DNA of 64,000 nucleotides from Methanobacteriota archaeon (GCA_026394495.1 JAPKYE010000012.1:83-64082); one strand, 5' to 3'. Counted from the first letter of the stretch, positions 21,883 to 46,201 are shown. Notes: generated by a model not told the origin, from the letters alone. Numbers and translations: made by a program.

Positions 21883-23241
21883 TTAAGAAGTAAACATTGA
21901 CGTTGATTGTTTTTTCGTCAAGAATGGTGAATATTTTTGATGGTTGTTCAATCAACCATAAATGGTATATGATCTGCTTCTCCTTAGAGATATGTTGATG
22001 TTTAATCTAGCTACCGCTAACCCGGCTGCCCATTATCGCCCAGAAATTTGATCTGAGATGATATCTTTGAACTCAGGTAAAATCACGAGGTACTTTTTTT
22101 TGATCCAGTGGAGTCTCACACTTAAAATGAAGTTACATAACTGCCATAGGTTATACAGAAATATGGAAAGCATTTGGAAAAGTAATCGTACGGGATATTT
22201 TTGTGAACAGGTTTTTCCTTGTACCTGTTATTTGACACGGTATCCAGTTTCTATTCCCCAGCGGTTTCGGTAGCTTTCTCCGAGTTCTAATGCGTTTTCC
22301 AGGGTGACTGGGATGTTGGTGATGTAGGTGAATTCATCCATAGGTTCTCTTGGTTTTTTCGGTGATTTAAGGATCACGACAAGGGTGACAGTGACATGTT
22401 GTTTTCATTTCTTCATCGTGTACGGTGTGATAAGCATGTATGATTCTGTCTCAGGGATATTTATCCCCTGGTGATGCGCAGAGATGATGAGTTTTTTGAT
22501 TTTGTTGTTGTGATCCGCTGGGATGACAAATACAACTGGGAGACTGAGAAGGGTGCTAATGGATTCTACGTCGAAGAATTCCCGATCCAGAAACAGCAAA
22601 CTGATCACGATATGATTTCTCGCTGCAGAAACAAGGTATACAAGTATCTGTTCCTTAGTGGTGAATTGATGCAGAGGAAGTGCAGCAAGAGTAAACCTTC
22701 CTTTGGTATTGACACACTCGATGCTCGCGTAAGCATGACCAAAGTTGGTTCCTCACACTCTTTCCATGCCGAGCACATGGATATCCGTTTCGTCCCCGTA
22801 CCAGGGCATCTTATGGATATCCAACCCACACTGAATGGGATTGTTGAAGATGCCGTGTTGTGCTGCATATCTTAGAAGGTCGTTGTTTACTTGGATAAAA
22901 ATTGAAAAAACTTGTTTGGTGTTAAGTTTGTTCAGGTGATAGAACACATCGTCATCGGAGGGACATTTCTTTTGTTGTTCCTGCAGTCGTTTTGATCCAT
23001 ACGCAACATATACATTGTGTGTGATGGAGAACATCACGGTTTTCACGATGTTCTCCTTGGCGTATGTACAGTTGTTTGCCATCTGCAAAGGCAAAGCTGT
23101 GGCGAAATCATTTTTGAGAGATTTTTTAAGAAGCTTGCCTAGGTTCTTGTGTGTATATTGTGGCGAGTGCATTTGTCATCCCAAAATACGAATGTTACTC
23201 ACCCCTAATACACTGCTTAACGTCGGCTTTCGGAACTACTG
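21868..23241 (-). mobile_element. ISH3-type (IS4-like DDE) insertion sequence, about 1.37 kb, inactivated
   Basis: Bounded by CAGTAG...CTACTG inverted ends and carrying one decayed DDE transposase; no clear target-site duplication. Confidence 0.85.
22033..23172 (-). pseudogene. DDE transposase pseudogene, one frame with three nonsense codons
   Basis: GLDIHKMPWYG (D), LFLDREFF (D), [12 protein letters not shown] (E) in one frame; internal stops TGA 22753-22755, TGA 22405-22407, TAA 22228-22230. Confidence 0.88.
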
Positions 23242-23244
23242 AGT
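23227..23244 (-). repeat. Terminal inverted repeat of the IS (right copy)
   Basis: CTTTCGGAACTACTGAGT, 16/18 inverted match to 21865-21882. Confidence 0.85.
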
Positions 23245-23420
23245 CTAGAGTAAAGTATTATATATGGTACGTATTTCGTTTTAGCTGGAAACCAATTTTG
23301 ACGGGATGTTAGATGATGTACAAAATAACAACTAATTTGTTAATAAACAGGTTTAGCAGATATACTCTTTCTGCATCTAGTTGTAAACAATATTCTGAAG
23401 TATATTTTTGAGATGTTATT

Positions 23421-25151
23421 ATGGGAAATGAGTCTGAAATTGTAAAAATTTTACGGGATGAAGAAAAACTTGGGAAACTTCATAGCAAACGTAAGAACGA
23501 CTATGAAGAAGTAACGACTCCAGAAATGTCGACGGATGGAGATGCAAACATTATACCTGGTTTGACTACAAAAGATATCTCAAAAAAAATAGAAAATGAA
23601 GAATTGAGAACTCTCGAAAGAATATCACGCCTTGTTTTTGAGAATTCCGCTGTTGCTATTACGATTACCGATGAATATGAGAGAATTATCTATTGGAATA
23701 AGTATGCCGAACAACTCTTAGGTATGAATAAAGATGATTTATATATGAAACATGTTAATTTGCTGTATCCCCCTGAGGAATGGTCGAAAATTCGCAAACA
23801 AAACATCAGACGGAAAGGCATGCAACATCATTTAGAAACCAAAATTCTCATGAAAAACAATGAACTGCAGGATGTTGATATCTCGCTGAGTGTTTTAAAA
23901 GATCAAAAAGGAGAAGTAATAGGCTCAATAGGGATTATTAAAGATATAACCGAACGGAAACAAATAGAAAAAGCGTTAAAAGAATCCGAAGAAAAATTCA
24001 AACAACTCTATGAAAAAGCGCCAATACCGTATCATATATTATCACCTCACGGTGAAATAACTAATGTGAATGAAAAATGGTGCCAAATACTTAGATATGC
24101 AAAGATGGATGTGATAGGAAAACCAATTTTTTATTTTATATCTGAAAATGAAAAAGAAACAGCCGGATCATCCTTTTTTAAAAAAATACTGGCTAAGAAT
24201 CCATATGCTGGCGGTCATGAGCGAACATTTGTGACTAAGGACGGGGAGAAAAGAATATTTGTGATACATGATTTTTTTTCTTTTGATGAAAATAATAATA
24301 TTAAATCTGTACATACGGCGATGGAGGATATCACTAATCGCAAACAGATGGAAACAGAACTGAAAGATGTAGACGAAATGCTTCGGACATTGAATAAAGA
24401 ACTTGAGCGAAAAGTATATGAGAGGACAGTTGAAATAGAAAACCTCTTAAAACAAAAAGACGAATTTATTAGCCAACTTGGTCATGATTTAAAGACACCT
24501 CTGACTATACTTATAAATATTTTACCTTTGGTTAAAAACGAAGTTGAGGATAAAAATAATAAAGAGGATTGTGACGTAGCTATTCGAAATGTCTACTACA
24601 TTAAAAATCTTGTTACTGAAACATTAAAAATTGCAGAGATCAGCTCACCAAAAGTAACATTTGATATAAAAGAATTAAATCTCTTGGATGTAGTGAATAA
24701 TGTTGTCACAGACAATCAATTTATTCTTGATGGAAAAAATTTTAAAATAGAAAATCACATTGATGAAAAGATCATTGTTGAAGCAGATGAATTAAGACTT
24801 TGTGAGATATTTAATAATATTATTAATAATGCTGTAAAATATTCTGGTAATGATGGAGGCACTATTACTCTAGATGCACAGAACGAAAAGGATGTTGTTA
24901 CCATTTCAGTGAGAGATACGGGTATCGGTATAACAAAAGAACAGTTGGATCATGTCTTTGATGAGTTTTACAAAGCTGATGAGTCTAGGCATAATCTAGA
25001 ATCGAGTGGTCTTGGTCTTTCCATCTGTAGACGTATTGTTGAGAAACATGGTGGACGGATTTGGGTTGAAAGCCCAGGTCTTGGAAAAGGTGCAACATTT
25101 TATTTCACTCTGAAACTGGGAAATAAAAATGTATACGAGAATAAATGGTGA
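23421..25151 (+). CDS. Cytoplasmic PAS-PAS sensor histidine kinase
   Basis: Two PAS/PAC units, H-box LGHDLKTPLT, NIINNAVKYS, DTGIGI, GLGLSIC; no TM segments. Confidence 0.93.
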   Translation: MGNESEIVKILRDEEKLGKLHSKRKNDYEEVTTPEMSTDGDANIIPGLTTKDISKKIENEELRTLERISRLVFENSAVAITITDEYERIIYWNKYAEQLLGMNKDDLYMKHVNLLYPPEEWSKIRKQNIRRKGMQHHLETKILMKNNELQDVDISLSVLKDQKGEVIGSIGIIKDITERKQIEKALKESEEKFKQLYEKAPIPYHILSPHGEITNVNEKWCQILRYAKMDVIGKPIFYFISENEKETAGSSFFKKILAKNPYAGGHERTFVTKDGEKRIFVIHDFFSFDENNNIKSVHTAMEDITNRKQMETELKDVDEMLRTLNKELERKVYERTVEIENLLKQKDEFISQLGHDLKTPLTILINILPLVKNEVEDKNNKEDCDVAIRNVYYIKNLVTETLKIAEISSPKVTFDIKELNLLDVVNNVVTDNQFILDGKNFKIENHIDEKIIVEADELRLCEIFNNIINNAVKYSGNDGGTITLDAQNEKDVVTISVRDTGIGITKEQLDHVFDEFYKADESRHNLESSGLGLSICRRIVEKHGGRIWVESPGLGKGATFYFTLKLGNKNVYENKW

Positions 25152-25165
25152 AGAGGTTTGGGAAT

Positions 25166-25537
25166 ATGAAAAAGATTATGATGGTGGATGATAACGTTGA
25201 TCTGACCTATGTGGTTAAAAAAAGTTTAGAAAAGATGGAAAACGGATGTGAGGTCATTAGTGCGAATCGTGGCCAAGAATGTTTTGATTTATTGAAAGAA
25301 GGTAAATTACCTGATCTCATATTATTAGATATTATGATGCCTGAAATGAACGGATGGGATGTATTTGCAAAATTGAAAGAAAACACAGAATGGAGAAAAA
25401 TCCCTATAGTGTTTCTAACAGCGAAGACAGATTCGTTAAGTAAAGGGTTTGGACAGATACCTGCACAGGATTATATTGAAAAACCATTTGAAATTGCAGA
25501 TTTGAAAAAGAGAATCGATACGATATTGGGAAAATAG
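25166..25537 (+). CDS. Stand-alone response regulator receiver
   Basis: MVDDN, ILLDIMMPEMNGWD, FLTAK, EKPF; no output domain. Confidence 0.93.
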   Translation: MKKIMMVDDNVDLTYVVKKSLEKMENGCEVISANRGQECFDLLKEGKLPDLILLDIMMPEMNGWDVFAKLKENTEWRKIPIVFLTAKTDSLSKGFGQIPAQDYIEKPFEIADLKKRIDTILGK

Positions 25538-25540
25538 AAT

Positions 25541-26764
25541 ATGTCTCTATCAGAAAACTCTGAGCTCGTTCGATATTTACTACAGGCGTTTGTGTCGGTA
25601 GTTGGTAGACGAACTTCTGAAAATTTTGCAATGGTAACACTAGATACCATTGTCAAACAACTTGAACCAAAATATAATTTTTTAAAATTTATTGAGATAA
25701 ATCCTTCCCGATATTCTGACGGAAAGGATGCCATTAGTATTAATCCAGAAATAAATAGCATTAGACCGAGTGATTTAGGGGAAGCATTAAACGAAATTCT
25801 TGATAGAGGAACTGAGTCATTAGATAAAAAAACAGATCATTATGTTAAGAGAGAAATTAAAGATGCACTTGGATCCATGTATGAATTAATAAATAAGAAA
25901 CTAGAATTAAATCTCCATGTTACGCAGTCTGAATATTTAGTCGATGCAGATGTACGAAGAATAATACCAGGAATTGTTCAGATAAAAAATTCTGAGGTAG
26001 TGGAACCTGTTTTAGGTGTGTTGATTAATTTATTGAATGGAGAATTTTCAGAAGCAGATGTAATGAAAACTATGATTACTTTTATCAAAAACCTTGAAGG
26101 GAAATATGATTTTTTAAAATATATCGAAATATCAGATTCACCTGATTCAGACGGCTTTTTTGTCGTTAGAGCTAGGCCTGAAATAGATGATGTTTTGACC
26201 ATTACATTTCGTGAAGCAATGCAGAAACTTATAGAAGAAATCGGTAAATCAACTCATCTGAAGACCCAGCTATCTTTTATAAAAGATTTCAAAATGGCAC
26301 TAGCGCCTGCAGATCTTGAAAAGATCAAAGAGATGAATATAAATCTGGATCAAATAGGTGAAATATTGCACCGTCGGGAAAATGAACTACTCTTTAAAAA
26401 AGCGTTGGACGCGATAGTGGGGGTAGTGAGTAGGAAGACATCAAAAAGTTTCGCAGTTGCGTTATTAGATACTATCATTGAAAAACTAAGGGATGGGCAC
26501 AAAGTTTTAAGATATGTTGTAATAAATAAATCTCGATATGCTGATGGTATTGATTCTATTTGTATCCTTCCGGAAGTAAACTCTGTTACATCATACGAAC
26601 TCGGTAAAGGATTAAAAGAAATACTCAAAAAAACACGCGAGAATCTTGGTTATAAACACACTTCATTTATTGAGGATTTCCAAAAACAACTTGGAGATGA
26701 GTATCTTGCAGAGATCGAAAAAATGGGAGTTAATCTGTATATGATAGAACTAAAATTTATTTGA
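25541..26764 (+). CDS. Hypothetical protein with three tandem ~130-aa repeats
   Basis: 407-aa ORF starting 3 bp after the receiver stop; repeats KYNFLKFIEI..DG..INPEIN / KYDFLKYIEI..DG..ARPEID / HKVLRYVVI..DG..ILPEVN. Confidence 0.85.
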   Translation: MSLSENSELVRYLLQAFVSVVGRRTSENFAMVTLDTIVKQLEPKYNFLKFIEINPSRYSDGKDAISINPEINSIRPSDLGEALNEILDRGTESLDKKTDHYVKREIKDALGSMYELINKKLELNLHVTQSEYLVDADVRRIIPGIVQIKNSEVVEPVLGVLINLLNGEFSEADVMKTMITFIKNLEGKYDFLKYIEISDSPDSDGFFVVRARPEIDDVLTITFREAMQKLIEEIGKSTHLKTQLSFIKDFKMALAPADLEKIKEMNINLDQIGEILHRRENELLFKKALDAIVGVVSRKTSKSFAVALLDTIIEKLRDGHKVLRYVVINKSRYADGIDSICILPEVNSVTSYELGKGLKEILKKTRENLGYKHTSFIEDFQKQLGDEYLAEIEKMGVNLYMIELKFI

Positions 26765-26831
26765 TATCTCTTAAAACTCAGGACAACCACCTGGAGAAAA
26801 ACCTGAAACATGCCGGGTCTAACAGATTTTT

Positions 26832-26855
26832 GTGCTGGGTGTAGGCCGTAAGCCT
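26832..26855 (+). repeat. Direct repeat, copy 1, flanking the beta-helix gene
   Basis: GTGCTGGGTGTAGGCCGTAAGCCT; 21 of 24 aligned positions match 28796-28818. Confidence 0.65.
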
Positions 26856-26910
26856 CTTTGCAACAGGAGAAAAACACAATATTTTCTGTAAATGCAAGAC
26901 AGAAGAAACA

Positions 26911-28629
26911 TTACATTTTAACCTGTTTTTTTCGTTTCCAAAAAAATATGAGTGCTACGATACAAAGAGTAAGGACTTCGATAAGTAATATTATAAAAAA
27001 TTCAAGATGCGATTGATTCAAAGTTGGTACTGTATATTCTCCTCGAATATTTACATGATTGCCTTCGAAAACATTATCGTAATAACTATTATTTAATGAA
27101 CGGGCGGGGTGGATCCCGAACTCATTATTAACAAGAGTATTTCTATAGACTGTGTTGTTATTTGAGTAATCCCACAAACAAATACCGTAATATGAATTTG
27201 CAATATTGTTCGATGTAATAGTATTGTCTGATGAGAATCCTAATTGTATACCAACAGTTACGTTCGTAATAGTAAGGTTTTGAATGAGGAACCTAGAACA
27301 GTTTGCAAGAATGACTTGACCTGCACTGTAGGGAACTGTTATATTATCTTGGCGATTTTTATAATAATAAATTGTCTTTCCATTAAGTGAATTATTTTCA
27401 ATAGTATGACTATTCCATTGATCAATTGAACTTCCCAATATATATAGCCCACTTGATGTAAAGAAATTATTATTGATCTCGTTTTCAATTGAATATTCAA
27501 TAAATATTCCCTCATAATTGTTAAGAAAATCATTTTTCAATATAACGTTCTTCGAAGAATTATCTTTCAATCGAATTCCTCGGCAATTATCTGTAAAATT
27601 ATTTTCCTGAATGATGTTTTCATTAGAATGAATCAGAAGGATACCACTGCATTTATTATTTTTAAAAATATTCTTTTCAACAATATTTTTATTTGAATTT
27701 ATCAAATCTAAACCTGGACCGGGACATGTTGCATTTATAATTGTATTATAAGAAATAGTGTTATCCGTACAAAGTTCATTTAACATTATCTCGACATGTT
27801 CGCTATTTAAAAAAGTATTGTTATACAAAGTATTATTAGTTGATTTAAATAAATAGAGAGAACCCCAACTCACATTTGTAATGTCATTAGAAGAAATATT
27901 GTTATATAATGAAAAACCCAATTGAATGCCGACATCACTATCAAATATTATAAGGTTTTGAATGAGACAATGAGAACAATTTGCAAGAATCACTTGTCCT
28001 GCGTCAGAAGGAACAGATATACTTTGTATATTTTTGAAATAGTAGATTGGTTTATTGTTAACAAAATTGTTATTTATGTTGTGGCTATTCCATTGGGATA
28101 ATGTATCTCCCCAGATACTGATTCCGCATGAAAAGAGAGCGTTATTTATAATTTCAGTTGTTGAAGAATTATCCAACGTAATACCATTAGAACAATTTTT
28201 TATGAAATTTCTATATAGACCCGTATAATTTGATTCGACATCAATACCTGCGTCCATCCATTTATTAATTCCACTATTTTGAATAGTAAAACCTGTTACA
28301 TTTGCATTATCTGCAGAAATAGAAATGATGTCTCCGTATCCGTTTCCATCTATAATCGTATTATTTCTATCTTCACCAATTAGTGATATCGATTTATTTA
28401 TCACAATATTTTCAGAATATTTTCCATTATAAACATAAACTATATTGCCAGGAGATGATGCATTTATTGCCTCCTGAATTTTGCTAAAATTAGCATTTCC
28501 AATTCCTCCAACATAAAGGATATTTGTTTCTGCTGCTTTGCAATTTTTGAAAGGTAAAAAAATAGAAAAAACACTTAATATCAATATACTAAGAATACCT
28601 ATTGTTGTAATTTTTTTCACAATTATCAT
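26911..28629 (-). CDS. Secreted, membrane-anchored NosD/CASH right-handed beta-helix protein
   Basis: Signal peptide, LYVGG...FSKIQEAINA, IVYVYNGKYSENIVINKSISLIGE, Asn-rich PbH1 repeats, C-terminal TM plus KRKK. Confidence 0.88.
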   Translation of the reverse strand: MIIVKKITTIGILSILILSVFSIFLPFKNCKAAETNILYVGGIGNANFSKIQEAINASSPGNIVYVYNGKYSENIVINKSISLIGEDRNNTIIDGNGYGDIISISADNANVTGFTIQNSGINKWMDAGIDVESNYTGLYRNFIKNCSNGITLDNSSTTEIINNALFSCGISIWGDTLSQWNSHNINNNFVNNKPIYYFKNIQSISVPSDAGQVILANCSHCLIQNLIIFDSDVGIQLGFSLYNNISSNDITNVSWGSLYLFKSTNNTLYNNTFLNSEHVEIMLNELCTDNTISYNTIINATCPGPGLDLINSNKNIVEKNIFKNNKCSGILLIHSNENIIQENNFTDNCRGIRLKDNSSKNVILKNDFLNNYEGIFIEYSIENEINNNFFTSSGLYILGSSIDQWNSHTIENNSLNGKTIYYYKNRQDNITVPYSAGQVILANCSRFLIQNLTITNVTVGIQLGFSSDNTITSNNIANSYYGICLWDYSNNNTVYRNTLVNNEFGIHPARSLNNSYYDNVFEGNHVNIRGEYTVPTLNQSHLEFFIILLIEVLTLCIVALIFFWKRKKQVKM

Positions 28630-28828: not shown

Positions 28829-29287
28829 TTATTGAAGTCTTTTTATTTCTTCTAACCTTTCATCTTCGATAAGTTTTACTAATTGATCCCCACTTTTTTT
28901 TACAATTTTTGTGATTCTGCCAGATAATATTTTTGGTTCTACTCCGATCAAAATAATTCTTTCCGTATATGATTCGAGATAAGTCATTAAAACAGATAGC
29001 GGAATCCCATGTGTGCTCACATGCATGGTACCGATCTTTTCTTTAGGGACAACCCGTGTTTCACCAGGCTTTAAACCCATTTCTACTGCATCAATGATGA
29101 TAAGATTTTTTGGCTTCTTTTTTTTAACTAGGGACGTAAAATTTTCTGGTGTGACCCCAGTATCAATAACCTCAACACCTGGGGAGGGCCTGTCTCTGAA
29201 ACAATCTGCGATATATGGTCCGATGGCATCATCACCGCCATCGCGATTTCCGACACAAAGGATAAGGTATTGTATCTGGTTTTTCAT
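28829..29287 (-). CDS. hycI: Hydrogenase maturation protease (HycI-like; start revised to MKNQI)
   Basis: CVGNRDGGDDAIG, PENF, IIIDAVEMG, STHGIPL. Confidence 0.88.
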   Translation of the reverse strand: MKNQIQYLILCVGNRDGGDDAIGPYIADCFRDRPSPGVEVIDTGVTPENFTSLVKKKKPKNLIIIDAVEMGLKPGETRVVPKEKIGTMHVSTHGIPLSVLMTYLESYTERIILIGVEPKILSGRITKIVKKSGDQLVKLIEDERLEEIKRLQ

Positions 29288-29322
29288 AGTTGTTCGCACC
29301 ATACACATATGAATAAAAAATA

Positions 29323-29580
29323 TTAGGAATACTTGATTTTTTGGTAGGCGAGGATAAACCACATGACCGCGGTTCCTGCGGTTGATAAACAACTGAGATA
29401 GAGTTCAAGTGTGTAAAAAATCCATGCCATTATCACGAGAAGAATCGCAGTCGGAAGTGCAGTATATAGCGACTGTCCATGAACCTCTTTGAGTCTGATG
29501 TTTCGTACGATCGCAGGAATGAGCGTAAGGATAAATAAGAAATTAATTACTGTTAATGCAAGATCCTGCCATATTGCCAT
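29323..29580 (-). CDS. Small 3-TM protein (SemiSWEET/PQ-loop-like)
   Basis: 85 aa MAIWQDLALTVINFLFILTLIPAIVRNIR... with three hydrophobic helices. Confidence 0.5.
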   Translation of the reverse strand: MAIWQDLALTVINFLFILTLIPAIVRNIRLKEVHGQSLYTALPTAILLVIMAWIFYTLELYLSCLSTAGTAVMWFILAYQKIKYS

Positions 29581-29661
29581 ATAAATCAGCAAAACAGGAG
29601 AGTATAAATAAAACTTCTGCATCGCAGAACATATAAAAATAGTTACTCGAGGATACAACAT

Positions 29662-30714
29662 ATGGCTGAAAGAATATCGCTTGCTCAAGGGGCCGGCGGG
29701 GAACTCATGGATAAACTCATCAAAGAAAAAATTCTCACGTATTTCAAACAAGACAAATCAATTGAGGTTCCTCTGACATTCATGGATGATGCTGCGGTCA
29801 TTGACGATATAGTGTTCTCTACTGATTCTCATACAGTTCATCCACTTATTTTCCCAGGAGGCGATATCGGTTCACTAGCCGTCTCTGGAACGATTAACGA
29901 TATCGCTGTTATGGGTGCGAAACCACTTGCGCTCTCTGCAGGGTTCATCATCGAAGAAGGATTCATGATGGAGACGTTTGAAACCATCGTGAAAAGCATG
30001 GGGCGATGTGCACAGAAAGCATGTGTTCCTATCGTTACCGGTGACACAAAGGTAGTGGAAAAAGGAGCAATCCAAGAATTCATGATAAACACCAGCGGTA
30101 TAGGTAAACGAACAAAGCTTCTTGATTACAACATCAAGGAAGTGAAACAACATAGGAAATTCACAGGCAGATGGCTTCTTGATTCTAATCTGAAACCAGG
30201 TGATCGGATCATTGTTTCAGGAAACATCGCAGAGCATGGGATTGCGCTACTTTCATTTCGTGAAGGGTACGGGTTTGAAACCACGGTGAAATCAGATGTT
30301 GCACCGCTGAATGAGGTAATGACGAAGGTTCTTACAGTTGGCGGCGTGGTTTCAGCGAAAGATCCGACGCGTGGCGGGCTTGCAAATACGATAAATGAAT
30401 ATAGTGAGAAATCACATGTTGGAATCATTCTATCTGAAGAGAACATCCCGATTTCAACGGGTGTACAGTCTGCATGTGGACTGCTCGGACTTGATCCGCT
30501 GGAGATCGGTAATGAAGGAAAAGTTGTTCTTGGTGTTGTAAAAGAGAAAGCAGAAGAAATCCTTTCTGTGTTAAAGAGACATCCTTTGGGTAAACATGCC
30601 GCGATCATCGGAACAGTCACCGATAAAATAACTGGTGTTGTATTGGAAACAACAGTTGGTGGACGACGTATTTTGCATAAACCGTTAGGCGATCCAGTAC
30701 CGCGAATCTGTTAA
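29662..30714 (+). CDS. hypE: Hydrogenase maturation carbamoyl dehydratase HypE
   Basis: LAQGAGG, FPGGDIGSLAVSGTINDIAVMGA, TGDTKVV, DPTRGG, NEGK, terminal PRIC. Confidence 0.96.
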   Translation: MAERISLAQGAGGELMDKLIKEKILTYFKQDKSIEVPLTFMDDAAVIDDIVFSTDSHTVHPLIFPGGDIGSLAVSGTINDIAVMGAKPLALSAGFIIEEGFMMETFETIVKSMGRCAQKACVPIVTGDTKVVEKGAIQEFMINTSGIGKRTKLLDYNIKEVKQHRKFTGRWLLDSNLKPGDRIIVSGNIAEHGIALLSFREGYGFETTVKSDVAPLNEVMTKVLTVGGVVSAKDPTRGGLANTINEYSEKSHVGIILSEENIPISTGVQSACGLLGLDPLEIGNEGKVVLGVVKEKAEEILSVLKRHPLGKHAAIIGTVTDKITGVVLETTVGGRRILHKPLGDPVPRIC

Positions 30715-30778
30715 CAGAAGAAAAACACACGGGGGAATGTTTTAATAACCCCTGGAATTACACTGGAAACGACTGATA

Positions 30779-32965
30779 ATGAAGCTGATTTTCAAAGGAG
30801 TTGTGCAAGGGGTAGGGTTTCGCCCGACAATTTATCGTGTCGCACAAGAACTTAAGTTGAAAGGTTACGTCCTTAACAATGGTTCTGAAGTGGAAGTTGT
30901 CATTGATAAAAACGAGGATATTTTCCTAAAAAAACTACGAACGCATCTGCCGTCAACCGCATTGATCACTGAAGTTTTACGGCAACCAGATAATCGAATA
31001 TTTCGTGATTTTCGCATTCTTCATAGTAAAGACGGAGAACGTCATTCTCGAATTCCTGTGGATGTCTGTACGTGTGATGATTGTCTCAAAGAAATATTTG
31101 ATACAAAAAATAAACGGTATCAGTATCCTTTCACCAATTGCACTGTATGCGGGGCAAGGTTCAGTTTGGTCACTGATGTCCCCTATGATCGAGAACGCAC
31201 CTCGATGAACGATTTTCCTCTTTGTAATTCTTGTAAAAAAGAATACAAAAACCCTTTAGATCGCAGATATCATGCACAAACCATCTCATGTCCCAACTGT
31301 GGTCCAACATATCGCTTGTATGACGACAAAAAAAATGATCTCGACTGTGAACATGCGATCAAACGATTCGCAAAACATCTTGACAGCGGATGCATCGGCG
31401 TCATGAAATCCTTAGGCGGCATGCATCTTTGCTGTACTCTTGAGCAGCTTTCTCGATTCCGTAAGTGGTATCATCAACCACAGAAAGCGTTTGCGATCAT
31501 GGTCAGAAATATAGAAACCGCAGAGAAATATGCAGATATCACAAAAAAAGAACGAGAATTTTTACTATCAAAACAGAGACCAATCGTCCTTGTACAAAAA
31601 AAAACCGCAGAGCTTGCGTCACCTGGATTAAACACTATAGGATTGTATCTTCCCTACACTGGTACGCATCATATTTTGTTTTCATATCTGAAGGCCGATG
31701 CACTGGTCATGACATCCGCGAACATCCCTGGAGAACCCATGATTATCCATAACGAAGATGCGTTTTCTCTTAATGCTGAGATTTATCTTTTACATAACCG
31801 CGATATCCCTAACCGCATTGATGATTCGGTTGTACGAATCTGGAATGATCACACATTTTTTTTAAGGAAATCACGAGGTTTTATCCCTGATCCACTCCCG
31901 GTATCCTATCAGTCTAGGGTACTTGCTGTGGGTGCAGAAGAAAACATCTGCGGAGCAGTCTCAAGTGAAAAACAGGTATACATGACTCAACATATCGGCA
32001 ATGGACGATACTATCATTCTCTAAAGTTTTTAGAACAAAGCCTGCGGCATCTCATGAAACTTACCATACATGACCATCATATCGACGCAGTTACAATGGA
32101 TCTACATCCAAACTATGAAACAAAAAGAATCGCAGAACTATTTGCAAAAGAGTTTTCAGTTCTTTGTACTGCGGTGCAGCATCATTGGGCGCATGCAGCA
32201 TCTCTTCTTGTGGATAACGCCGTTGATGAAAGTGTTGTTCTCACTCTTGATGGTCTTGGCTACGGAGCTGATGGCACATTCTGGGGCGGAGAAGTTCTTA
32301 CTGCGGATTTTCATGGTTTTGAACGCGTAGGACATCTTGAAAACATCTCCCTTCTTGGTGGTGATCAGGCAACAAAAGATCCAAGGCGACTGGTGTTCGC
32401 AATATTCAACACATTCAAGAAAGAAAAATATTTCAGTGGAGACGAAGCAGATGTTCTTAAGAAACTCATGAGTACATCACCGCAATCAAGCAGTTTTGGA
32501 CGTATTCTCGATGCGCTTTCGTGTTACCTTGATATATGTACGAAAAGAACCTATGATGGGGAGCCTGCGATGAAACTGGAGCGGTATCTTGCCTCAGGAA
32601 AACCAACGATCTCATTTGAAGCGAAAGTGAAACAGGGAATCGTACAGACAATTGATGTTTTCCAGCAACTTGATGAAATCGCAAAACCAAAATATTCGGA
32701 AAAACAAAAAGCAGATATTGCTTTTTCTTTTGTGAAAGCAATAATTGATTCACTTACTGATATCGCTGTTGAATGCGCACAGAAAAAAGGCATTGAAACG
32801 ATAGGTCTGACTGGAGGCGTCTCCTATAACATACCTATCGTGGATATGGTGGCGACACAGGTGAAAAAAACTAATTTATCGTTTCTTGTGCATCATCGTG
32901 TCCCAAATGGAGATGGAGGAATTGCCGTGGGACAAAATGCGATTGTTGGTCATTGTATTTCGTAA
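30779..32965 (+). CDS. hypF: Carbamoyltransferase HypF
   Basis: GVVQGVGFRP, Zn fingers CDDC/CTVC/CNSC/CPNC, RYHAQ, QHHWAHA, DGLGYG, GDGGIAVGQ. Confidence 0.96.
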   Translation: MKLIFKGVVQGVGFRPTIYRVAQELKLKGYVLNNGSEVEVVIDKNEDIFLKKLRTHLPSTALITEVLRQPDNRIFRDFRILHSKDGERHSRIPVDVCTCDDCLKEIFDTKNKRYQYPFTNCTVCGARFSLVTDVPYDRERTSMNDFPLCNSCKKEYKNPLDRRYHAQTISCPNCGPTYRLYDDKKNDLDCEHAIKRFAKHLDSGCIGVMKSLGGMHLCCTLEQLSRFRKWYHQPQKAFAIMVRNIETAEKYADITKKEREFLLSKQRPIVLVQKKTAELASPGLNTIGLYLPYTGTHHILFSYLKADALVMTSANIPGEPMIIHNEDAFSLNAEIYLLHNRDIPNRIDDSVVRIWNDHTFFLRKSRGFIPDPLPVSYQSRVLAVGAEENICGAVSSEKQVYMTQHIGNGRYYHSLKFLEQSLRHLMKLTIHDHHIDAVTMDLHPNYETKRIAELFAKEFSVLCTAVQHHWAHAASLLVDNAVDESVVLTLDGLGYGADGTFWGGEVLTADFHGFERVGHLENISLLGGDQATKDPRRLVFAIFNTFKKEKYFSGDEADVLKKLMSTSPQSSSFGRILDALSCYLDICTKRTYDGEPAMKLERYLASGKPTISFEAKVKQGIVQTIDVFQQLDEIAKPKYSEKQKADIAFSFVKAIIDSLTDIAVECAQKKGIETIGLTGGVSYNIPIVDMVATQVKKTNLSFLVHHRVPNGDGGIAVGQNAIVGHCIS

Positions 32966-33635: not shown

Positions 33636-35801
33636 ATGAATAAAGATGCGGAAGCAACTTCTAGTAGGATTCTTGATAATAACAGCGAAACTCAATTAGC
33701 AATAGAAACAGTATCACTGGATAATCCAAAGCTCTTTATCAACCGTGAACTCAGCTGGCTTTGTATGCACGAGCGGATTCTGGAAGAGGCAAACGATAAA
33801 AATAATCCGCTGTTGGAGCGTGTGAAATTTCTTGCGATCTGCGGCAGCAACCTTGACGAATTCTTCATGGTTCGTGTCTCCGGGTTGAGGCGGCAACTGA
33901 AGAAAGGTGCGTTGAAACTGCCACCTGATGGGATGACGCCATTTGAGCAGCTCACCGCAATCAGAAAAGAAGTCCTCATTCTCTTAGAAAACCATACGTT
34001 ATGCTGGAGAGATCGTTTAATCCCTGAACTAAAAGATGCAGGACTTGAAATTCTTCGCATCAGCGATCTTGAGGCAAAAAAACAAACTGCGTTGAGGCAG
34101 TACTTCGAACACAATGTTTTTCCTACGTTGACTCCTCTTGCAATGGATCCTACGCATCCGTTTCCATTCATCTCAAACCTCAGCATCAACCTTGCAGTAA
34201 TTCTAAGAGACTCAGAAAAACATGAGAAATATGCGCGGGTAAAGATTCCCACAAAACTTTTTCATCGATTTATCTTGATCCCCTCTGAAACTGAGGCGAA
34301 AACAGAGCAATCAAAACGCCAAGAGTTCGTGTTTTTCGAGGATCTTATTGCAGCAAATCTTGATATGCTTTTTCCCGGGATGGAGATCGTTGGGGTGTAC
34401 CCGTTTCGGATAACAAGAGATGCAGAAATCGATATAGTCCTTGATCAGGCTGGTGATCTTCTTACTGCGATTGAGGAGAGCATTGAGACGAGACGTGTTG
34501 GTTCTCCAGTTCGTCTTGAGGTGTCACCTGATATGCCTGAGTATCTGAGAAATTTGTTTGTGAAAAACCTTGGGCTTACCGAGGATATGGTGTATCCGTT
34601 CGATGGGCCTTTGGCGTTCATTGATTTCTGGGAGCTTCTCAATATCGTTGATCGTCCTGATATGAAAGACACCCCGTTTCTCCCATTTACTCCTATGCAG
34701 CTTTCAGAGAAAACAGATATCTTCGCTGCGGTTTCACAGAAGGATTTTGTTCTGTATCATCCGTATGATAGCTTCAACGTCCTCGTAAATCTCTTGCATC
34801 AAGCAGCTCATGATCCTGATGTACTCTCAATTATGCTTACGATGTATCGGATTGATAAAAACTCACCAGTGATAGAATCATTAAAGCAGGCGAGACAAAA
34901 CGGCAAAGCAGTGACTGCTCTTATTGAGTTAAAAGCAAAGTTTGATGAGCAGAACAATATCCAATGGGCAAAAGAACTTGAACAAGAGGGGGTCCATGTC
35001 ATCTATGGTCTTGTTCATCTGAAGGTTCATGCAAAGCTTTGTCTGGTTGTACGAAGGGAAAAAGAGGGAATTGTGCGTTATTCGCATTTGAGTTCAGGAA
35101 ACTATAATGCGGTAACCGGGAGGATTTATGGGGATATTGGTTATCTCACTGCGAATAAAACGATAGGTGAAGATGTTTCTCATTTGTTCAATGCTCTTAC
35201 CGGGTACTCTGAGAAAGCGGAGTACAAAATGCTTTTGGTAGCACCCGCGAGATTACGACAAGAGATCATTGATCGTATCGACCGGGAAATCGAGTGTTTT
35301 AAGAAAACCGGTCAGGGGTATATCGCATGGAAACTCAATGGTTTGCTTGATAAAGAAGTGATTCAGGCGTTGTATCGTGCATCGATGGCAGGAATAAAAA
35401 TCGATTTGAATGTACGGGGTTTATGTTCTCTTCGCCCTGGAATCAAAGGAATAAGTGAAAACATTACGGTTACTTCGATTGTTGGTCGTTTTCTTGAGCA
35501 TGCACGGATTTATTATTTCTGGGACAAAGGAAACGAAGAAGTGCTTCTCGGCAGTTCAGATATGATGCCAAGAAACCTTGATCGTCGCGTGGAGGTGTTG
35601 TTTCCTGTTCCTGATCAAAAAGTAAAAAAAGCAATCATTGAGATTATGCTGAAAATCCATTTGAAGGATATGATGAAAGCACGACGTCTTCTGCCTGATG
35701 GAACCTATGAGAAGATCATGCCAAACGATGAAGAGAAGAGCCTGAATTCGCAGCTTTGGCTCATTAACAACCGGGGCATTTGGCATGGCATCGAAAAGTG
35801 A
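33636..35801 (+). CDS. ppk1: Polyphosphate kinase 1
   Basis: FINRELSWL, NLDEFFMVRV, HPFPFISN, YHPYDSF, ELKAKFDE, KVHAK, SSGNYN, GRFLEHARI, RNLDRRVE. Confidence 0.96.
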   Translation: MNKDAEATSSRILDNNSETQLAIETVSLDNPKLFINRELSWLCMHERILEEANDKNNPLLERVKFLAICGSNLDEFFMVRVSGLRRQLKKGALKLPPDGMTPFEQLTAIRKEVLILLENHTLCWRDRLIPELKDAGLEILRISDLEAKKQTALRQYFEHNVFPTLTPLAMDPTHPFPFISNLSINLAVILRDSEKHEKYARVKIPTKLFHRFILIPSETEAKTEQSKRQEFVFFEDLIAANLDMLFPGMEIVGVYPFRITRDAEIDIVLDQAGDLLTAIEESIETRRVGSPVRLEVSPDMPEYLRNLFVKNLGLTEDMVYPFDGPLAFIDFWELLNIVDRPDMKDTPFLPFTPMQLSEKTDIFAAVSQKDFVLYHPYDSFNVLVNLLHQAAHDPDVLSIMLTMYRIDKNSPVIESLKQARQNGKAVTALIELKAKFDEQNNIQWAKELEQEGVHVIYGLVHLKVHAKLCLVVRREKEGIVRYSHLSSGNYNAVTGRIYGDIGYLTANKTIGEDVSHLFNALTGYSEKAEYKMLLVAPARLRQEIIDRIDREIECFKKTGQGYIAWKLNGLLDKEVIQALYRASMAGIKIDLNVRGLCSLRPGIKGISENITVTSIVGRFLEHARIYYFWDKGNEEVLLGSSDMMPRNLDRRVEVLFPVPDQKVKKAIIEIMLKIHLKDMMKARRLLPDGTYEKIMPNDEEKSLNSQLWLINNRGIWHGIEK

Positions 35802-38127
35802 TGTAGTGTATCGAACTGAGCAGTCTGGTTTCTGTGTTTTCGGTTCGAATAGTCTATCAAAGTTTGTGTACACGTTGAAAAACCAGATTGAGGGTGCGAA
35901 ACGCGGGGATGATACTGAGTATGTGCATCAGTTGCGTGTCGCATCGCGCAGAATCCGCTCGACGATGTCGATTTTCAGACCGTGTTTTCCAAAGAAGAAT
36001 TATATGCATTGGGAATCTGAAGTAAGAAACGTAACTCGTTCCCTTGGCGTTGCAAGGGATACCGATGTGCAGATTTTTTTTGTAGAAAATTATCTGAAAA
36101 ACGTTCGCAGCCAAGCAACTAGATCCGGAATTGAATATCTTTTGGCAAAGCATCGGGAACGACGAATGGTGATGCAGCCTAGAGTTATTAGTACGCTTGA
36201 GCAGCTTTTGATTTCGCAGGCACTTGATCAGATGATCGCGCAGTGTAACACGGTTCTTAGTCAGTGTGCATCAGCTGAGACTGGTTCTCTTCGATCGGTA
36301 GGAGTATTGCGTGAGGCGCAGCGTCATATTTTGAAAAGACTTCGGAATTTTATTGATATGAAAGACTGTGTCCATAGGGAAGATGCATTTCTTTTGCATC
36401 ATGAAATGCGTATTGCAGCGAAGCATCTTCGGTATACGATGGAGATATTTTGCACTTTGTATGAGGATAATCTCAAACAATATGTGTCTGTGATGAAACA
36501 ATTTCAGGATGTTCTTGGGGAGATGCATGATTGCGATGTGTGGATTGAATTTATTCCTTCGTTTATCGAAACCATGAAAAAAGAAGAGATCACATCTGAA
36601 AAAAAAGACATTGATGTTGTTTCGATGGAAAAAGCGCTCCATGTATTTCTTGATCATGTGAAAAAACGAAGGCATTTGTTGTATAGCAATTTCGTATCGA
36701 TCTGGGATGCAAATATGAAACAAAAAACATTTGATCATCTCAGCGAACAAATTAGTATCATTATGCTTTCTGTTGCGGATTCAAATCAGAAGATCGCAAT
36801 AATTGCTGATCATCATGCGAATCTTCATGCATTGACGGCGGTAATAACCGATGCAAAGAAACATGGTGCCACCATGTTTTTGAATGCTGGGGATTTTGTT
36901 GGGTTTGGTGCATTTCCTAGCGAAGTTGTTTCTCTGCTTCACACTGAAGAGGTGTTAAGTGTTATCGGTAATTATGATCAAGATGTTCTTACGCTTATAA
37001 AAAAAGAAAAAAAGAAAACAAAAAACAAGGATGAAAAGTTTCTTTCTCTTGCCTACGCTAGTAAACATCTCTCAAAAACAGATGCTTCGTTTCTTCGTTC
37101 TCTGCCACAGGAGCTTCGGTTGAAGATTGATGACAAGCGTCTTCTTGTTACGCATGAAAGTCCTAAATCTATTGATGAACATCTTCGATTAAATACTCCG
37201 ATTGATCGCATGAGCGAAATTGCTAAAACCTCATCAGCAGATGTGATTATTGTTGGTCATTCCCATCAGCCATTTGTGAGAACGATCGATGGCGTCACGT
37301 TTGTTAACCCCGGGAGTGTCGGAAGACCCGATGATGGGAACCCATCGGCGTCATATGCATTGATGACAATAAATCCCTTCTCCGTTGAATTGCTGCGAGT
37401 CTCCTATGATGTTGATGCTGCAGTGGATGCGATACGAAAACATCATCTGCCTGAACGTTTTGCCCAGATGCTTCTGCATGGTGTCTCACTTGAGGCCATT
37501 GAGGAACTAGAGCATAAACGACTGCAAGAATCAGTAAAAAGTAAGACATCGCGGCTGAAACATGTTGAGCGTTTTGCAGAGAAGTTTGCTCGAGATCTCA
37601 CCCATCCCTATCACGTGAAAAAACTTGCGTTACATTTGTTCGATGCGCTAAAAGACCTCTGTTCTCTCAATGATGATGATCGATTTATGCTTGAATGTGC
37701 AGCGATCCTTCATGACATCGGCTGGTCTCAGGGGTGGAAAGGGCATCATAAAACCTCGTTGCGTTTTATTCTCAATGACACTGCTCTTCCGTTCACGATT
37801 CGAGAAAAATATATTGTGGGTAGCATTGCCCGGTATCACCGAAAAACGTTTCCACAGCAGGCACATTACCATTTCGCAGCACTGAACTTTGATGATCAGC
37901 GCAGAGTAGAGATCCTTTCTGCGATCATGCGGCTTGCAGATGCATTGGATGCTTCGCATCATTCCGTTGTGAAAACAGTTGCGGTTCATATTGAACACGA
38001 TGAGATAACGATCCGATGTGGTCCTGAAGGGAACACGGAGCTGGAGGAACACGCAATCGACAAGAAGAAAGCATTGTTTGAGGCGGTGTTCAAAAGGAGA
38101 CTTGTGGTACTATGGAACAGAAAATAG
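35785..38127 (+). CDS. CHAD + metallophosphoesterase + Ppx-type HD fusion protein
   Basis: CHAD: VHQLRVASRRIRS, HEMRIAAKHLRY, QDVLGEMHD. MPE: IADHHAN, GDFVG, GNYD, GHSH, NPGSVG. HD: AAILHDIG, ARYHRK, RLADALD. Confidence 0.9.
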   Translation: MASKSDVVYRTEQSGFCVFGSNSLSKFVYTLKNQIEGAKRGDDTEYVHQLRVASRRIRSTMSIFRPCFPKKNYMHWESEVRNVTRSLGVARDTDVQIFFVENYLKNVRSQATRSGIEYLLAKHRERRMVMQPRVISTLEQLLISQALDQMIAQCNTVLSQCASAETGSLRSVGVLREAQRHILKRLRNFIDMKDCVHREDAFLLHHEMRIAAKHLRYTMEIFCTLYEDNLKQYVSVMKQFQDVLGEMHDCDVWIEFIPSFIETMKKEEITSEKKDIDVVSMEKALHVFLDHVKKRRHLLYSNFVSIWDANMKQKTFDHLSEQISIIMLSVADSNQKIAIIADHHANLHALTAVITDAKKHGATMFLNAGDFVGFGAFPSEVVSLLHTEEVLSVIGNYDQDVLTLIKKEKKKTKNKDEKFLSLAYASKHLSKTDASFLRSLPQELRLKIDDKRLLVTHESPKSIDEHLRLNTPIDRMSEIAKTSSADVIIVGHSHQPFVRTIDGVTFVNPGSVGRPDDGNPSASYALMTINPFSVELLRVSYDVDAAVDAIRKHHLPERFAQMLLHGVSLEAIEELEHKRLQESVKSKTSRLKHVERFAEKFARDLTHPYHVKKLALHLFDALKDLCSLNDDDRFMLECAAILHDIGWSQGWKGHHKTSLRFILNDTALPFTIREKYIVGSIARYHRKTFPQQAHYHFAALNFDDQRRVEILSAIMRLADALDASHHSVVKTVAVHIEHDEITIRCGPEGNTELEEHAIDKKKALFEAVFKRRLVVLWNRK

Positions 38128-39707
38128 TTGCACCATCGGAGAACGTTGTCGGTTTTATCGACATCGGCACAAACTCCATTCGTCTGATGCTTGTTCAGCT
38201 CACCTCAAATAGTTCATATACAGTTCTTCGTGAGGAAAAAGAAGTGGTTCGTCTCGGTGAAAGTATTTTTAAAAAAGGTTTTTTTCAGCCGGAGACAATG
38301 ACTCGTGCATTGTTGGTGTGTAAAAAATTTGTTGAGGTATCTCGTGGTTTTGGCGCCAGAGAAATTATTGCGGTTGCAACTGCAGCTGCTCGAGAAGCTA
38401 AGAATCAGAAAGAGTTTCTTGAGCGGTTGCGGGAAGAGACCACTCTTGATGTTCGTGTTGTCTCTGGTGGGGAAGAAGCGCGTCTTATATATCTTGGTGT
38501 TTCCAGTGGTGTTCATGTTGATAAGAAGATCGCGGTCTTCGTTGACATCGGTGGTGGGAGCACGGAGATCATCATCGGTGATCAATTTCAGCATTATGAT
38601 ATTGAAAGTATGGGGCTTGGTGCGATTCGTCTGACGACGTTGTTTCTTTCTGGGCGTGGAAACGGTGTTGTTTCTCCTGAGACATATGAGAAAATGAAAC
38701 GGTATGTGAAAAACAAGTTGGTTCATGTGACAGAGCGGGTGAACCCTAAAAAGCTTGATGTTGCGTTTGGGAGTTCTGGTACGATCATCAATTTGGCTGA
38801 GATTGCAAGTAAAATGTTTGAGAGAACTGAGACAAAGCAGGACATGGTTCTTCGGTATAAGGATCTGCAGAAGGTGATAGCTAAACTGTGTTCTTTGTCT
38901 GTTGCGGAGCGTCGTTTGATTCCTGGGATTAACCCGGAGCGTGCTGATATCATCATTGGTGGTGCGGTGATTATTGAGACGATCATGGAGGATTTGGAAC
39001 TCAAAGAATTGTTTGTGAGTTATCGTGATATGCGGTATGGGATGCTTGTGGATTATCTTTCTCGGCATGCAGGGTATCCGCAACATAATGAGACATCGGT
39101 GCGAAAAAGTAGTGTGCTTCGTCTAGGTCATTCCTGTAACGTAAATGAACATCATGCGAACCGGGTTGTGTCTCTTTCTCTTCAGTTGTTTGATGGTTCA
39201 AAAGCGATAAAGCTTCATGATCTGGGAGACGATGAGCGGGAGTTGTTAGAGTACGCTGCGTTTCTTCATGATATCGGTGATTTTATTTCGTTTCGTGGTC
39301 ATCATCTCCATTCCTATTATATTATCAACAACGCTGAGCTTCTTGGTTTTGATCAGACTGAGATCGGAATTATCGCTAATGTAGCCAGGTTTCATCGAAA
39401 GAAACTTCCGCGCAAGAAGGAGCCTTCGCTAATTGAGCTTGATAAACATTCGATTAAAACCGTTGTGATTCTTTCGACGTTGCTGCGTATCGCTGAGAAA
39501 CTTGACCGCAGTCATACCGATCTTGTGCAGAAGATAGAGTTTGTTTTACATGGTGAAAACAAGGTTGAGCTTTTACTTGTATGTTCGAAACAGGATTGTG
39601 AGTTTGAGCGATGGGGCGTCGAAGAGGATTCTGATGCGTTTGAAAAGGTGTTTGAGAAACGATTGTTTGTTTCTGTGATAAAAAACGAGCCGCAGATCCT
39701 AGCGTAA
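38112..39707 (+). CDS. ppx: Exopolyphosphatase Ppx/GppA with HD domain
   Basis: IDIGTNSIRL, ATAAAREAKN, SGGEEARL, DIGGGSTE, GSSGT, RADIIIGG, LHDIG. Confidence 0.95.
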   Translation: MEQKIVAPSENVVGFIDIGTNSIRLMLVQLTSNSSYTVLREEKEVVRLGESIFKKGFFQPETMTRALLVCKKFVEVSRGFGAREIIAVATAAAREAKNQKEFLERLREETTLDVRVVSGGEEARLIYLGVSSGVHVDKKIAVFVDIGGGSTEIIIGDQFQHYDIESMGLGAIRLTTLFLSGRGNGVVSPETYEKMKRYVKNKLVHVTERVNPKKLDVAFGSSGTIINLAEIASKMFERTETKQDMVLRYKDLQKVIAKLCSLSVAERRLIPGINPERADIIIGGAVIIETIMEDLELKELFVSYRDMRYGMLVDYLSRHAGYPQHNETSVRKSSVLRLGHSCNVNEHHANRVVSLSLQLFDGSKAIKLHDLGDDERELLEYAAFLHDIGDFISFRGHHLHSYYIINNAELLGFDQTEIGIIANVARFHRKKLPRKKEPSLIELDKHSIKTVVILSTLLRIAEKLDRSHTDLVQKIEFVLHGENKVELLLVCSKQDCEFERWGVEEDSDAFEKVFEKRLFVSVIKNEPQILA

Positions 39708-39772
39708 ACCACCTGAGATAATTTTATAAGTAGGAAATACGATTGATAGTTTGAACTTGGATGGGATGTTAG

Positions 39773-40393: not shown

Positions 40394-40457
40394 GATGCAA
40401 CATTAATATGGTTCTGATTGTTTACTGAATTTCATTGGGCGGAGGATGTGAGGATTT

Positions 40458-41300: not shown

Positions 41301-41360
41301 TCATTGTTTTTTTATTTTTTGAGTTTTATTGTCGATGTGATTGTTGATATCTGAAGAAGG

Positions 41361-41840: not shown

Positions 41841-41890
41841 CATGACCACCGTACTATTGATTAGAAAATGTATAAAGGAGGAATAAAAAA

Positions 41891-42169: not shown

Positions 42170-42189
42170 CCGCATATCCTGTAGAGAAC

Positions 42190-42450: not shown

Positions 42451-42543
42451 TTTTTCTTTCTGATTCTATTTTTTTTATTGAACATTAGTGTAAAACAACA
42501 AGCAAGTGTTTCTATGGTGATAAAAAAGAAAAAAATGAGGTGT

Positions 42544-43218: not shown

Positions 43219-43378
43219 TTTGTTACCTCCACATATTTTTCTTTTTATTTTCTACCCCCATATTATTTTTTTTATTTATATTATTTTCTGTATGTGGATT
43301 TTTATATATTCTACAGAAAAGTAAAACAAATGTTCGTTTCGTATACTTATTATTCAACAAATAATTGTACATTAATCG

Positions 43379-43876: not shown

Positions 43877-43891
43877 ATATATTTCAACTCC

Positions 43892-44904: not shown

Positions 44905-44910
44905 ATACTG

Positions 44911-46167: not shown

Positions 46168-46201
46168 CTCCTTATATATTTGTTATTCAAAGAAATATAT
46201 C

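Follow-up and report, generated by a model that had tools for sequence, protein, structure and literature searches.

In a 64,000-nucleotide stretch of archaeal DNA (JAPKYE010000012.1:83-64082, hereafter the window), we describe a plus-strand block of three open reading frames (ORFs) at positions 23421-26764 that encodes a sensor histidine kinase (HK), a stand-alone receiver (REC) and a protein in which a ~130-residue repeat, here named X, occurs three times. The three ORFs begin and end exactly where the initial annotation had placed them, and the block is probably a translationally coupled three-gene operon of an uncultured freshwater-sediment Thermoplasmatota archaeon. The kinase–receiver core is of an already known type; what we rate as new is a two-component system that has as its output a separate protein composed of a novel domain. 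From its sequence and gene contexts, X reads as a lineage-specific protein–protein interaction module of two-component signalling that would bind the receiver, and we consider the chances about evenly balanced that it is the signalling partner of this two-component system through that receiver. As far as searched, in Pfam, NCBIfam, PDB and the literature on record, the X family is undescribed.

The kinase, the receiver and the triple-X protein

The kinase (Table 1) carries two PAS_9 stretches (Pfam, E 4.6e-29; the first at residues ~70-181, the second at ~190-310), a HisKA domain at residues 345-408 (E 1.2e-6) and a HATPase_c domain at residues 456-566 (E 5.5e-31). Its H-box reads GHDLKTP and contains His355 (codon 24483-24485), and the N, G1 and G2 boxes are intact (NNAVKY, DTGIGI and GLGLS). 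No hydrophobic or transmembrane (TM) segment was found in the protein, the maximum Kyte-Doolittle 19-residue mean being 1.13, and it is therefore taken to be a soluble, cytoplasmic sensor. The Pfam domains and the lack of a TM segment agree with the initial description of a soluble PAS-PAS kinase.

The ATG of the receiver gene overlaps the kinase stop codon by 7 nt, with an alternative start (M8) at 25166. Response_reg is the sole domain of the protein (residues 11-124, E 1.6e-22), which upholds its earlier description as a receiver without an output domain, and its catalytic set is complete: D15, D16, the phospho-acceptor D62 (codon 25328-25330), T92 and K113. Since all of these residues are present, the receiver should be phosphorylatable. 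Kinase and receiver together carry the sequence hallmarks of a two-component system, namely the HisKA histidine, the HATPase_c boxes and the receiver residues, and we infer phosphotransfer from the former to the latter from the 7-nt gene overlap and from the HK–REC pairing kept in relatives. A Pho-type role for the pair was considered and rejected: the PhoR/PhoB-like top matches in NCBIfam are generic and fall far below the cutoffs, the phosphate cluster of the window lies at least 7 kb away, and this synteny is not kept in relatives.

The triple-X gene starts 3 nt past the REC stop codon. Its threefold internal repetition, as first proposed, was confirmed by BLASTP between the thirds of the protein (repeats 1 and 3, 37% identity, E 1e-29; repeats 1 and 2, 32%, E 1e-18; repeats 2 and 3, 23%, E 5e-13) and by a single-repeat hidden Markov model (HMM) built from 42 homologues, which matches it three times. 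The consensus motifs that the initial annotation had read from the repeats are essentially correct, apart from two single-residue slips in repeat 3: this copy reads G-H-K-V-L-R-Y, the leading K being absent, and A-E-I-E-K-M-G-V-N-L, with A for the first E of ExIxxM. Repeat 1 is the copy closest to the single-domain paralogues and to paralogues in which X is joined to a probable winged helix (X-wHTH), both of which match profile positions 1-140. Repeat 3 is basic, with an isoelectric point (pI) of 8.9.

Table 1. Positions of the block and of other features of the window, and of X-linked genes in related loci (locus handle given before the position).
Feature	Position	Strand	Remarks
Sensor histidine kinase, soluble	23421..25151	+	576 aa; Pfam PAS_9, HisKA, HATPase_c
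Stand-alone receiver (REC)	25145..25537	+	130 aa; Pfam Response_reg
Triple-X protein	25541..26764	+	407 aa; acidic, pI 5.5; no TM segment; no known domain
X repeat 1 (residues 5-133)	25553..25939	+	Single-repeat HMM, independent E-value (i-E) 1.1e-44
Linker between repeats 1 and 2 (residues 134-146)	25940..25978	+	Low AF2 confidence
X repeat 2 (residues 147-273)	25979..26359	+	Most divergent copy; HMM i-E 5.8e-42
X repeat 3 (residues 279-406)	26375..26758	+	Best conserved copy; HMM i-E 4.1e-45
NosD/right-handed beta-helix protein	26911-28629	-	572 aa; convergent with the X gene
Hydrogenase maturation genes	28829-32965		Immediately downstream of the block; include a HycI-type protease (-), Pfam
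HypE-like ORF, putative	29662-30714	+	Read from translation
HypF-like ORF, putative	30779-32965	+	Read from translation
Phosphate/polyphosphate cluster	33636-52090		Dense
Single X and archaellin genes	L069:5001-8657
Single X and archaellin genes	L070:5001-8524
Single X and archaellin genes	L071:5001-7955
Spacer, single X to archaellin	L069:5439-5631
Spacer, single X to archaellin	L070:5445-5619
Spacer, single X to archaellin	L071:5439-5584
EarA gene	L001:2061-2411
EarA gene	L007:4888-5238
EarA gene	L008:2096-2446

An AF2 model of the full-length protein from a 42-row alignment reached a pLDDT of 83.6 and a pTM of 0.51, with an uncertain arrangement of the domains; residues 128-146, read as a disordered linker, have a pLDDT below 50 and form the least conserved stretch (24% mean identity). 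Repeat 3 modelled alone gave a pLDDT of 90.3 and a pTM of 0.86, and shows two long helices, a short two-stranded hairpin made of the KY-FLKYI-I and I-I-PEIN motifs, and four to five more helices. Most positions conserved over 678 domain instances are hydrophobic; the rest are R-[RK]-T at the turn between helices 1 and 2, K..Y.FLKY, IN.V, G.FFIKE and GV[DN]L. Two polar positions ~20 residues apart, the Glu of G-x-FFIKE and the Asp/Asn of GV[DN]L, are kept in all X architectures. The consensus of these instances contains no conserved His or Cys, which argues against Hpt-type phosphotransfer and against metal or cofactor chemistry; the acidic character of the domain (median pI ~5) argues, more weakly, against nucleic-acid binding.

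The X family and its gene neighbourhoods

Known families and folds were searched in the 2025 edition of Pfam and the 2026 editions of NCBIfam and PDB, among other libraries, with a structural match defined as a Foldseek E of at most 1e-3 or a TM-score of at least 0.5. The best Pfam matches of the window triple-X protein were CDT1 (E 0.068) and TPR_RNF123 (E 0.16), neither reaching a curated threshold, and NCBIfam returned no match to it; the 42 homologues, run singly against Pfam, gave scattered sub-threshold matches only (TINF2_N, HNOB, SesA). No phage family of PHROGs or defence family of PADLOC matches X, and PDB sequences were matched neither by the single protein nor by the family profile. 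With Foldseek, the repeat-3 model reached a best E of 2.3 and TM-scores of at most 0.37 against PDB and a best E of 0.86 against BFVD, while the full-length model reached a best E of 0.31 against PDB. The initial annotation had suggested that the repeat may define an undescribed domain and had proposed a Foldseek search with a single copy; the suggestion is borne out, with no match in Pfam, NCBIfam, PHROGs, PADLOC, PDB or BFVD.

Several specific candidates were rejected. Kinship with HNOB/H-NOX/V4R was raised by weak matches in 5 of the 42 members (best E 0.005) and in protein P0197 (E 0.015; 15.7 bits against a Pfam cutoff of 25.5). Neither H-NOX nor V4R occurs among the top 50 of the 85 Foldseek PDB matches of repeat 3, and we discount the HNOB matches because they come with no structural match and no conserved His. 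X cannot be an Hpt or Spo0B-type phosphotransferase, since no His is conserved in the 678 instances, and Pfam gave no Hpt match. Membership in the CheZ, CheC/CheX/FliY, Spo0E or Rap families, whose phosphatase signatures are D..Q in CheZ, ExxN in CheC, SQELD in Spo0E and TPR in Rap, found no Pfam and no Foldseek match. The idea that the helix-helix-hairpin part of X is a winged helix was dropped as well, the MarR matches of the full-length model being at chance level (E ~2). CheF-arch, FlaC_arch and Arch_fla_DE are absent among the families matched by the window protein at E ≤ 1 and among the 25 most frequent of the 99 families matched by the 42 members, and no Pfam match to HalOD1/2, NitrOD1-5, HalX, DUF835 or MEDS was found in the window protein or the 42 homologues.

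A word-indexed search returned 62 relatives, all of ~400 residues, and an exhaustive profile search of 1.84 billion representatives returned 385 clusters (50% identity) at E ≤ 1e-3. The best 150 of these 385 clusters were covered, and of the 430 family proteins with a near-full-length X domain 153 have a single X (~146 residues), 142 have one X and an extension (mostly ~300 residues), 113 are triple (~400 residues) and 22 are double or fragmentary. At 90% identity, the X-wHTH paralogue forms 565 clusters and the single X 338. The precomputed Pfam entries of the family proteins are all empty ('-'). Every named relative and genome locus belongs to Thermoplasmatota, Thermoplasmata or 'Euryarchaeota' metagenome-assembled genomes, mostly from sediments, and the family is widespread in sediment Thermoplasmatota; the window encodes an archaeal TFB, and its sequence was found in freshwater-sediment metagenome DNA runs. 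Single-X and triple-X genes occur together in L008, and L035 and L040, which carry different forms, share one assembly. Two further forms were seen: P0191 (345 residues) joins a single X to C-terminal TPR repeats (TPR_12, E 1e-24), another protein-interaction context, and L068:2-1966 holds tandem X genes, one of at least 241 residues cut by the contig end and, 18 nt on, a 406-residue triple-X gene.

The neighbourhoods of triple-X genes were compared in 35 non-redundant loci, whose ORFs were searched with the window receiver, kinase core and PAS region and whose neighbours were all clustered. Besides X itself, the most frequent neighbour families are the histidine kinase (18/35 loci) and the stand-alone REC (17/35), and one or both adjoin the triple-X gene in 20 of the 35 loci, across three lineages. 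In clade A, which includes the window, the order is HK-REC-X on one strand, with a REC-to-X gap of 1-28 nt; the kinases vary, that of L001 being a 7TM-HAMP kinase (7TM, seven transmembrane segments) and the others PAS kinases, and a further REC gene follows X in L001 and L012. Clade C, at 23-28% identity to the window protein, shows a different order, with REC on the minus strand divergent from X, followed on the X side by a HAMP-HK, 85-194 nt away, and a PAS protein. In L013 and L015, X is flanked by REC genes on both sides. X thus shares with lineage-specific output domains the trait of a conserved REC/HK neighbourhood. The 13 loci of clade B (L014, L016-L023, L026, L027, L036 and L038), taken up below, lie in a conserved housekeeping context with an Lhr-like helicase upstream and, downstream, HMG-CoA synthase and thiolase genes of the mevalonate pathway and a DUF35-like gene (candidate names, read from the sequences).

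The ~300-residue X-wHTH form consists of X, a conserved middle region and a C-terminus that is probably a winged helix, as suggested by sub-threshold matches to HTH_45 (E 1.8e-4; 21.9 bits against a cutoff of 25.5), PADLOC WH_III-A (E 5e-4) and an AdcR/MarR PDB profile (E 0.06). Some of these proteins are labelled 'predicted transcriptional regulator' by JGI. Among the 22 fetched loci with enough upstream sequence to be judged, a PAS kinase lies just upstream of X-wHTH in 21, the exception being L040; the gap between the end of the kinase ORF and X-wHTH is exactly 7 nt in 18 loci and 9-19 nt in 3 more. REC lies upstream of the kinase in 18/22, and in the remaining loci the upstream sequence runs out within the kinase gene. 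The question raised by the initial annotation, whether homologues sit beside receiver or kinase genes, is therefore answered positively both by the triple-X loci and by this paralogue.

The single X is found in a third setting, which the initial annotation had not foreseen. In all three single-X contexts that were read (L069, L070 and L071; the proteins are 41, 52 and 62% identical to the reference P0164), the gene immediately precedes 3-4 tandem archaellin genes (PF01917), towards which PFK and an ArlJ-like T2SSF gene converge from the opposite side. The spacer between X and the archaellins begins, 3' of the single X, with an oligo-T run and includes a conserved segment that bears CTGCATAT, is ATCTACCTGCATATGCACCTG-like and partly duplicated, and lies ~100 nt before the first archaellin start codon. 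Because of the oligo-T tract, this conserved segment and a separate promoter-like region ahead of the first archaellin gene, the single X is read as a transcription unit of its own beside the archaellin promoter. The CTGCATAT segment is a candidate regulator site, possibly that of EarA, the euryarchaeal archaellum transcription activator. EarA (PF07381) is itself encoded 1-3 genes from REC/HK in three clade-A triple-X loci (L001, L007 and L008). In L008, HK, REC and EarA are co-directional, with a 122-nt gap, and beyond EarA, up to the end of the L008 contig, follow a single X and the two small secreted-protein genes that also occur before the archaellins in L070 and L071.

Proposed role of X and competing explanations

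Having no output domain, the receiver must act via a partner. In the scheme we propose, the PAS-PAS kinase would sense an intracellular cue and autophosphorylate on His355, the phosphoryl group would move to Asp62 of REC, and phosphorylated REC would act through a partner protein by docking on X. The triple-X protein would be the most likely partner, a scaffold or adaptor with as many as three units for docking, and in X-wHTH a trans-acting receiver would be coupled to a DNA-binding-type domain, giving a 'split response regulator'. Further downstream, motility or cell-surface expression would be affected, such genes being possibly the output target to judge by other contexts of the family.

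X is the best partner candidate on four grounds: the coupling of its gene to that of the receiver; the link between its family and REC/HK, which holds in at least three or four arrangements and involves unrelated sensor modules; its resemblance to an interaction module, being acidic and helical and having no catalytic signature; and a paralogue that joins it to a winged helix in the place where REC would sit. The initial annotation had proposed the repeat protein as target or scaffold of the receiver, and the analysis supports this proposal, with gene order as what suggests the contact.

A number of observations weigh against this assignment. The putative REC–X contact is read from gene order, which cannot tell REC-binding from HK-binding, and X adjoins the kinase in X-wHTH loci and in clade C. 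No fusion of X to REC or HK, for which the initial annotation had proposed to look, was seen among the ~430 family members inspected; such a fusion would be the strongest genomic argument for a partnership, and rare fusions may have been missed because it is the best 150 of 385 clusters that were covered. In clade B, neither REC nor HK is adjacent to X, and none lies within 6 kb except in L023, which has two REC genes 3.6-4 kb upstream; with L003, which resembles clade B, the triple-X loci lacking two-component genes total ~13-14. Since the linked groups (clade A, clade C and L013/L015) bracket clade B in a neighbour-joining tree of X proteins, the two-component link would most simply be ancestral and lost in clade B.

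The X-wHTH evidence has limits of the same kind. A metagenome scan with one query protein returned only close relatives, and the loci, having 70-99% mutual identity, are not independent; together they amount to roughly one further independent arrangement. One distant member (L040, 43% identity) has no two-component neighbours. With a median pI of 4.9, the putative winged helix is acidic, so that DNA binding by X-wHTH is not assured. The link to the archaellum, finally, comes from only three single-X loci and three EarA-adjacent loci, and the 64-kb window contains no EarA, archaellin, ArlJ, PFK or radical-SAM neighbour genes. Because of this, the archaellum link applies to the X family and not directly to the window locus, and it is weaker than the assignment of X as a signalling partner.

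A wider version of the proposal would make X a new receiver-recognition domain that wires HisKA kinases and stand-alone REC proteins to outputs in trans. X-wHTH would then be a split response regulator controlling transcription, and single-X and triple-X proteins would tie archaellum expression or motor function to a phosphorelay other than Che, replacing or bypassing CheY-CheF-ArlCDE. Taken as a whole, this is tentative, and we regard it as somewhat unlikely.

X could instead serve on the input side, binding the kinase or a small ligand and modulating autophosphorylation or phosphatase activity, like bacterial kinase accessory regulators. This would suit the position of the kinase as immediate neighbour of X in two of the three arrangements (7 nt in X-wHTH, 85-194 nt in clade C), and the weak, scattered matches to HNOB, a haem-NO-binding sensor, in 5/42 members and P0197 also speak for it. 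However, X accompanies very different kinases (soluble PAS, 7TM-HAMP, HAMP), and the stand-alone REC is the commoner constant, with X in clade A coupled to REC at 1-28 nt. The top 50 of the 85 Foldseek matches include no H-NOX or V4R, with TM-scores below 0.4, and the domain offers a cofactor no conserved His or Cys. We regard an input-side role as unlikely.

The position of the single X at the head of the archaellin cluster, in 3/3 loci, would also be expected if X were a target or structural factor, such as a lineage-specific cytoplasmic part of the archaellum motor or assembly or another cell-surface accessory, that is merely co-expressed with the two-component system or regulated by it. 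Clade B, where triple-X genes have no adjacent two-component genes, fits such a role, as does the recurrence of secreted NosD, PKD, C25 and M14 proteins near triple-X genes, to which we give little weight because these are common in the genomes concerned. Against it stand the separate transcription unit of the single X (oligo-T run and promoter-like region), the X-wHTH fusion, which argues for a regulatory module, the Pfam scans of the 42 members, which gave no similarity to ArlC, ArlD/E, CheF or archaellin, and the lack of archaellum genes in the window. We consider a structural role distinctly unlikely.

An all-helical, acidic protein encoded beside a stand-alone receiver might further be an auxiliary phosphatase that terminates the signal of phosphorylated REC, as the helical CheZ, Spo0E and Rap proteins do, and the conserved Glu and Asp/Asn of X loosely recall the acid-amide pairs of CheZ and CheX. 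These two residues are, however, ~20 positions apart, X shows no likeness in sequence or fold to CheZ, CheC/CheX/FliY, Spo0E or Rap, and a phosphatase would leave the winged-helix fusion and the archaellin-linked single X unexplained; such a role is very unlikely. That X is an unrelated lineage-specific protein, syntenic by chance and without functional meaning, would agree with the lack of association in clade B and with the descent relationship of many supporting loci, but is highly improbable given that the link is seen again in three different gene orders, alongside different families of kinase, at identities as low as 23% and also in the paralogous X-wHTH architecture, and that gaps of 1-7 nt suggest coupled expression.

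Surroundings of the block and comparison with known systems

Outside the block, the window has a varied gene content (Table 1). The HK, REC, X and NosD-like genes (23421-28629) have GC contents of 0.33, 0.34, 0.33 and 0.29, well below the 0.395 of the window and the 0.41-0.44 of the PRPP synthetase, HypE and HypF genes that flank them, and this AT-rich segment may be an acquired island or reflect a different codon regime. The 1.5 kb upstream of the kinase (21956-23420) hold only short ORFs, which overlap, occur on both strands (134, 139 and 87 residues) and have no family match; this stretch may be a decayed gene or a mobile-element remnant beside the low-GC block. The NosD-like protein begins with a signal-like segment and ends in a hydrophobic anchor. 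The phosphate cluster includes PPK1 (721 residues), Ppx/GppA, PPK2, PhoU, PstB, a 647-residue fused Pst permease, an AbrB/MazE-PhoU protein and an unusual 780-residue fusion of CHAD, metallophosphoesterase and Ppx-domain-III/HD. A search with Rfam over the whole window returned no RNA family.

Archaeal receivers are mostly stand-alone and are thought to signal by protein–protein contacts; bare receivers make up ~40% of archaeal response regulators, and hardly any of their partners are known (PMC5847659). Because no more than 3 kinases and 4 regulators were counted in the 11 Thermoplasmata genomes of the 2018 census (PMC5847659), the signalling repertoire of the uncultured lineage has not been surveyed. 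The closest parallels to X are HalOD1, NitrOD1-5 and HalX, which are small, restricted to one lineage, mostly stand-alone and present in several copies per genome, and which are associated with genes for REC, PAS and kinase proteins and presumed to act by protein–protein contacts (Galperin et al. 2018, PMC5847659). X resembles them in its confinement to one lineage (Thermoplasmatota), in its single, triple and fused forms and in the presence of at least two forms in one assembly, but has no sequence similarity to them. Those domains were defined through REC fusions, whereas no REC-X fusion was seen among the ~430 X-family members inspected, and the internal triplication and the archaellin-cluster context of X are traits not described for them.

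Other systems offer partial analogies. To our knowledge, CheY–CheF is the only well-worked case of a bare archaeal receiver and its partner. As in the CheY-CheF-ArlCDE system, a stand-alone REC is here proposed to dock on an adaptor, and the X family occurs in or beside archaellum loci; unlike that system, the block has a classical HisKA kinase in place of CheA and no che genes, X has no similarity to CheF or ArlC/D/E, and the window has no archaellum genes. Bacterial single-domain regulators (CheY-FliM, DivK-DivL, Spo0F-Spo0B, CpdR) likewise couple an output-less receiver, by binding that depends on phosphorylation, to a trans partner that is often encoded nearby, but their partner families are unrelated to X. 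EarA shares the neighbourhood of X in L001, L007 and L008, and both are small, cytoplasmic and archaellin-linked; EarA is, however, a winged-helix DNA binder to which X is unrelated, and it is missing from the window. H-NOX/HNOB (PF07700), whose weak matches lie over the N-terminal helices of X, is also signalling-associated and has a helical N-terminal part, but it gave no structural match, and its conserved haem-ligand His is not found in X.

Overall, the X family provides a concrete candidate partner for stand-alone archaeal receivers, in the form of a compact, confidently modelled domain of ~130 residues whose three architectures hint at what it connects, and its recurrent link to archaellum loci gives a candidate phenotype. 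Even if X did not bind REC, it would still be an undescribed and abundant domain family worth a Pfam entry. If it does, X would represent a new output class for two-component systems and would offer an entry to the control of motility and surface proteins in uncultured archaea.

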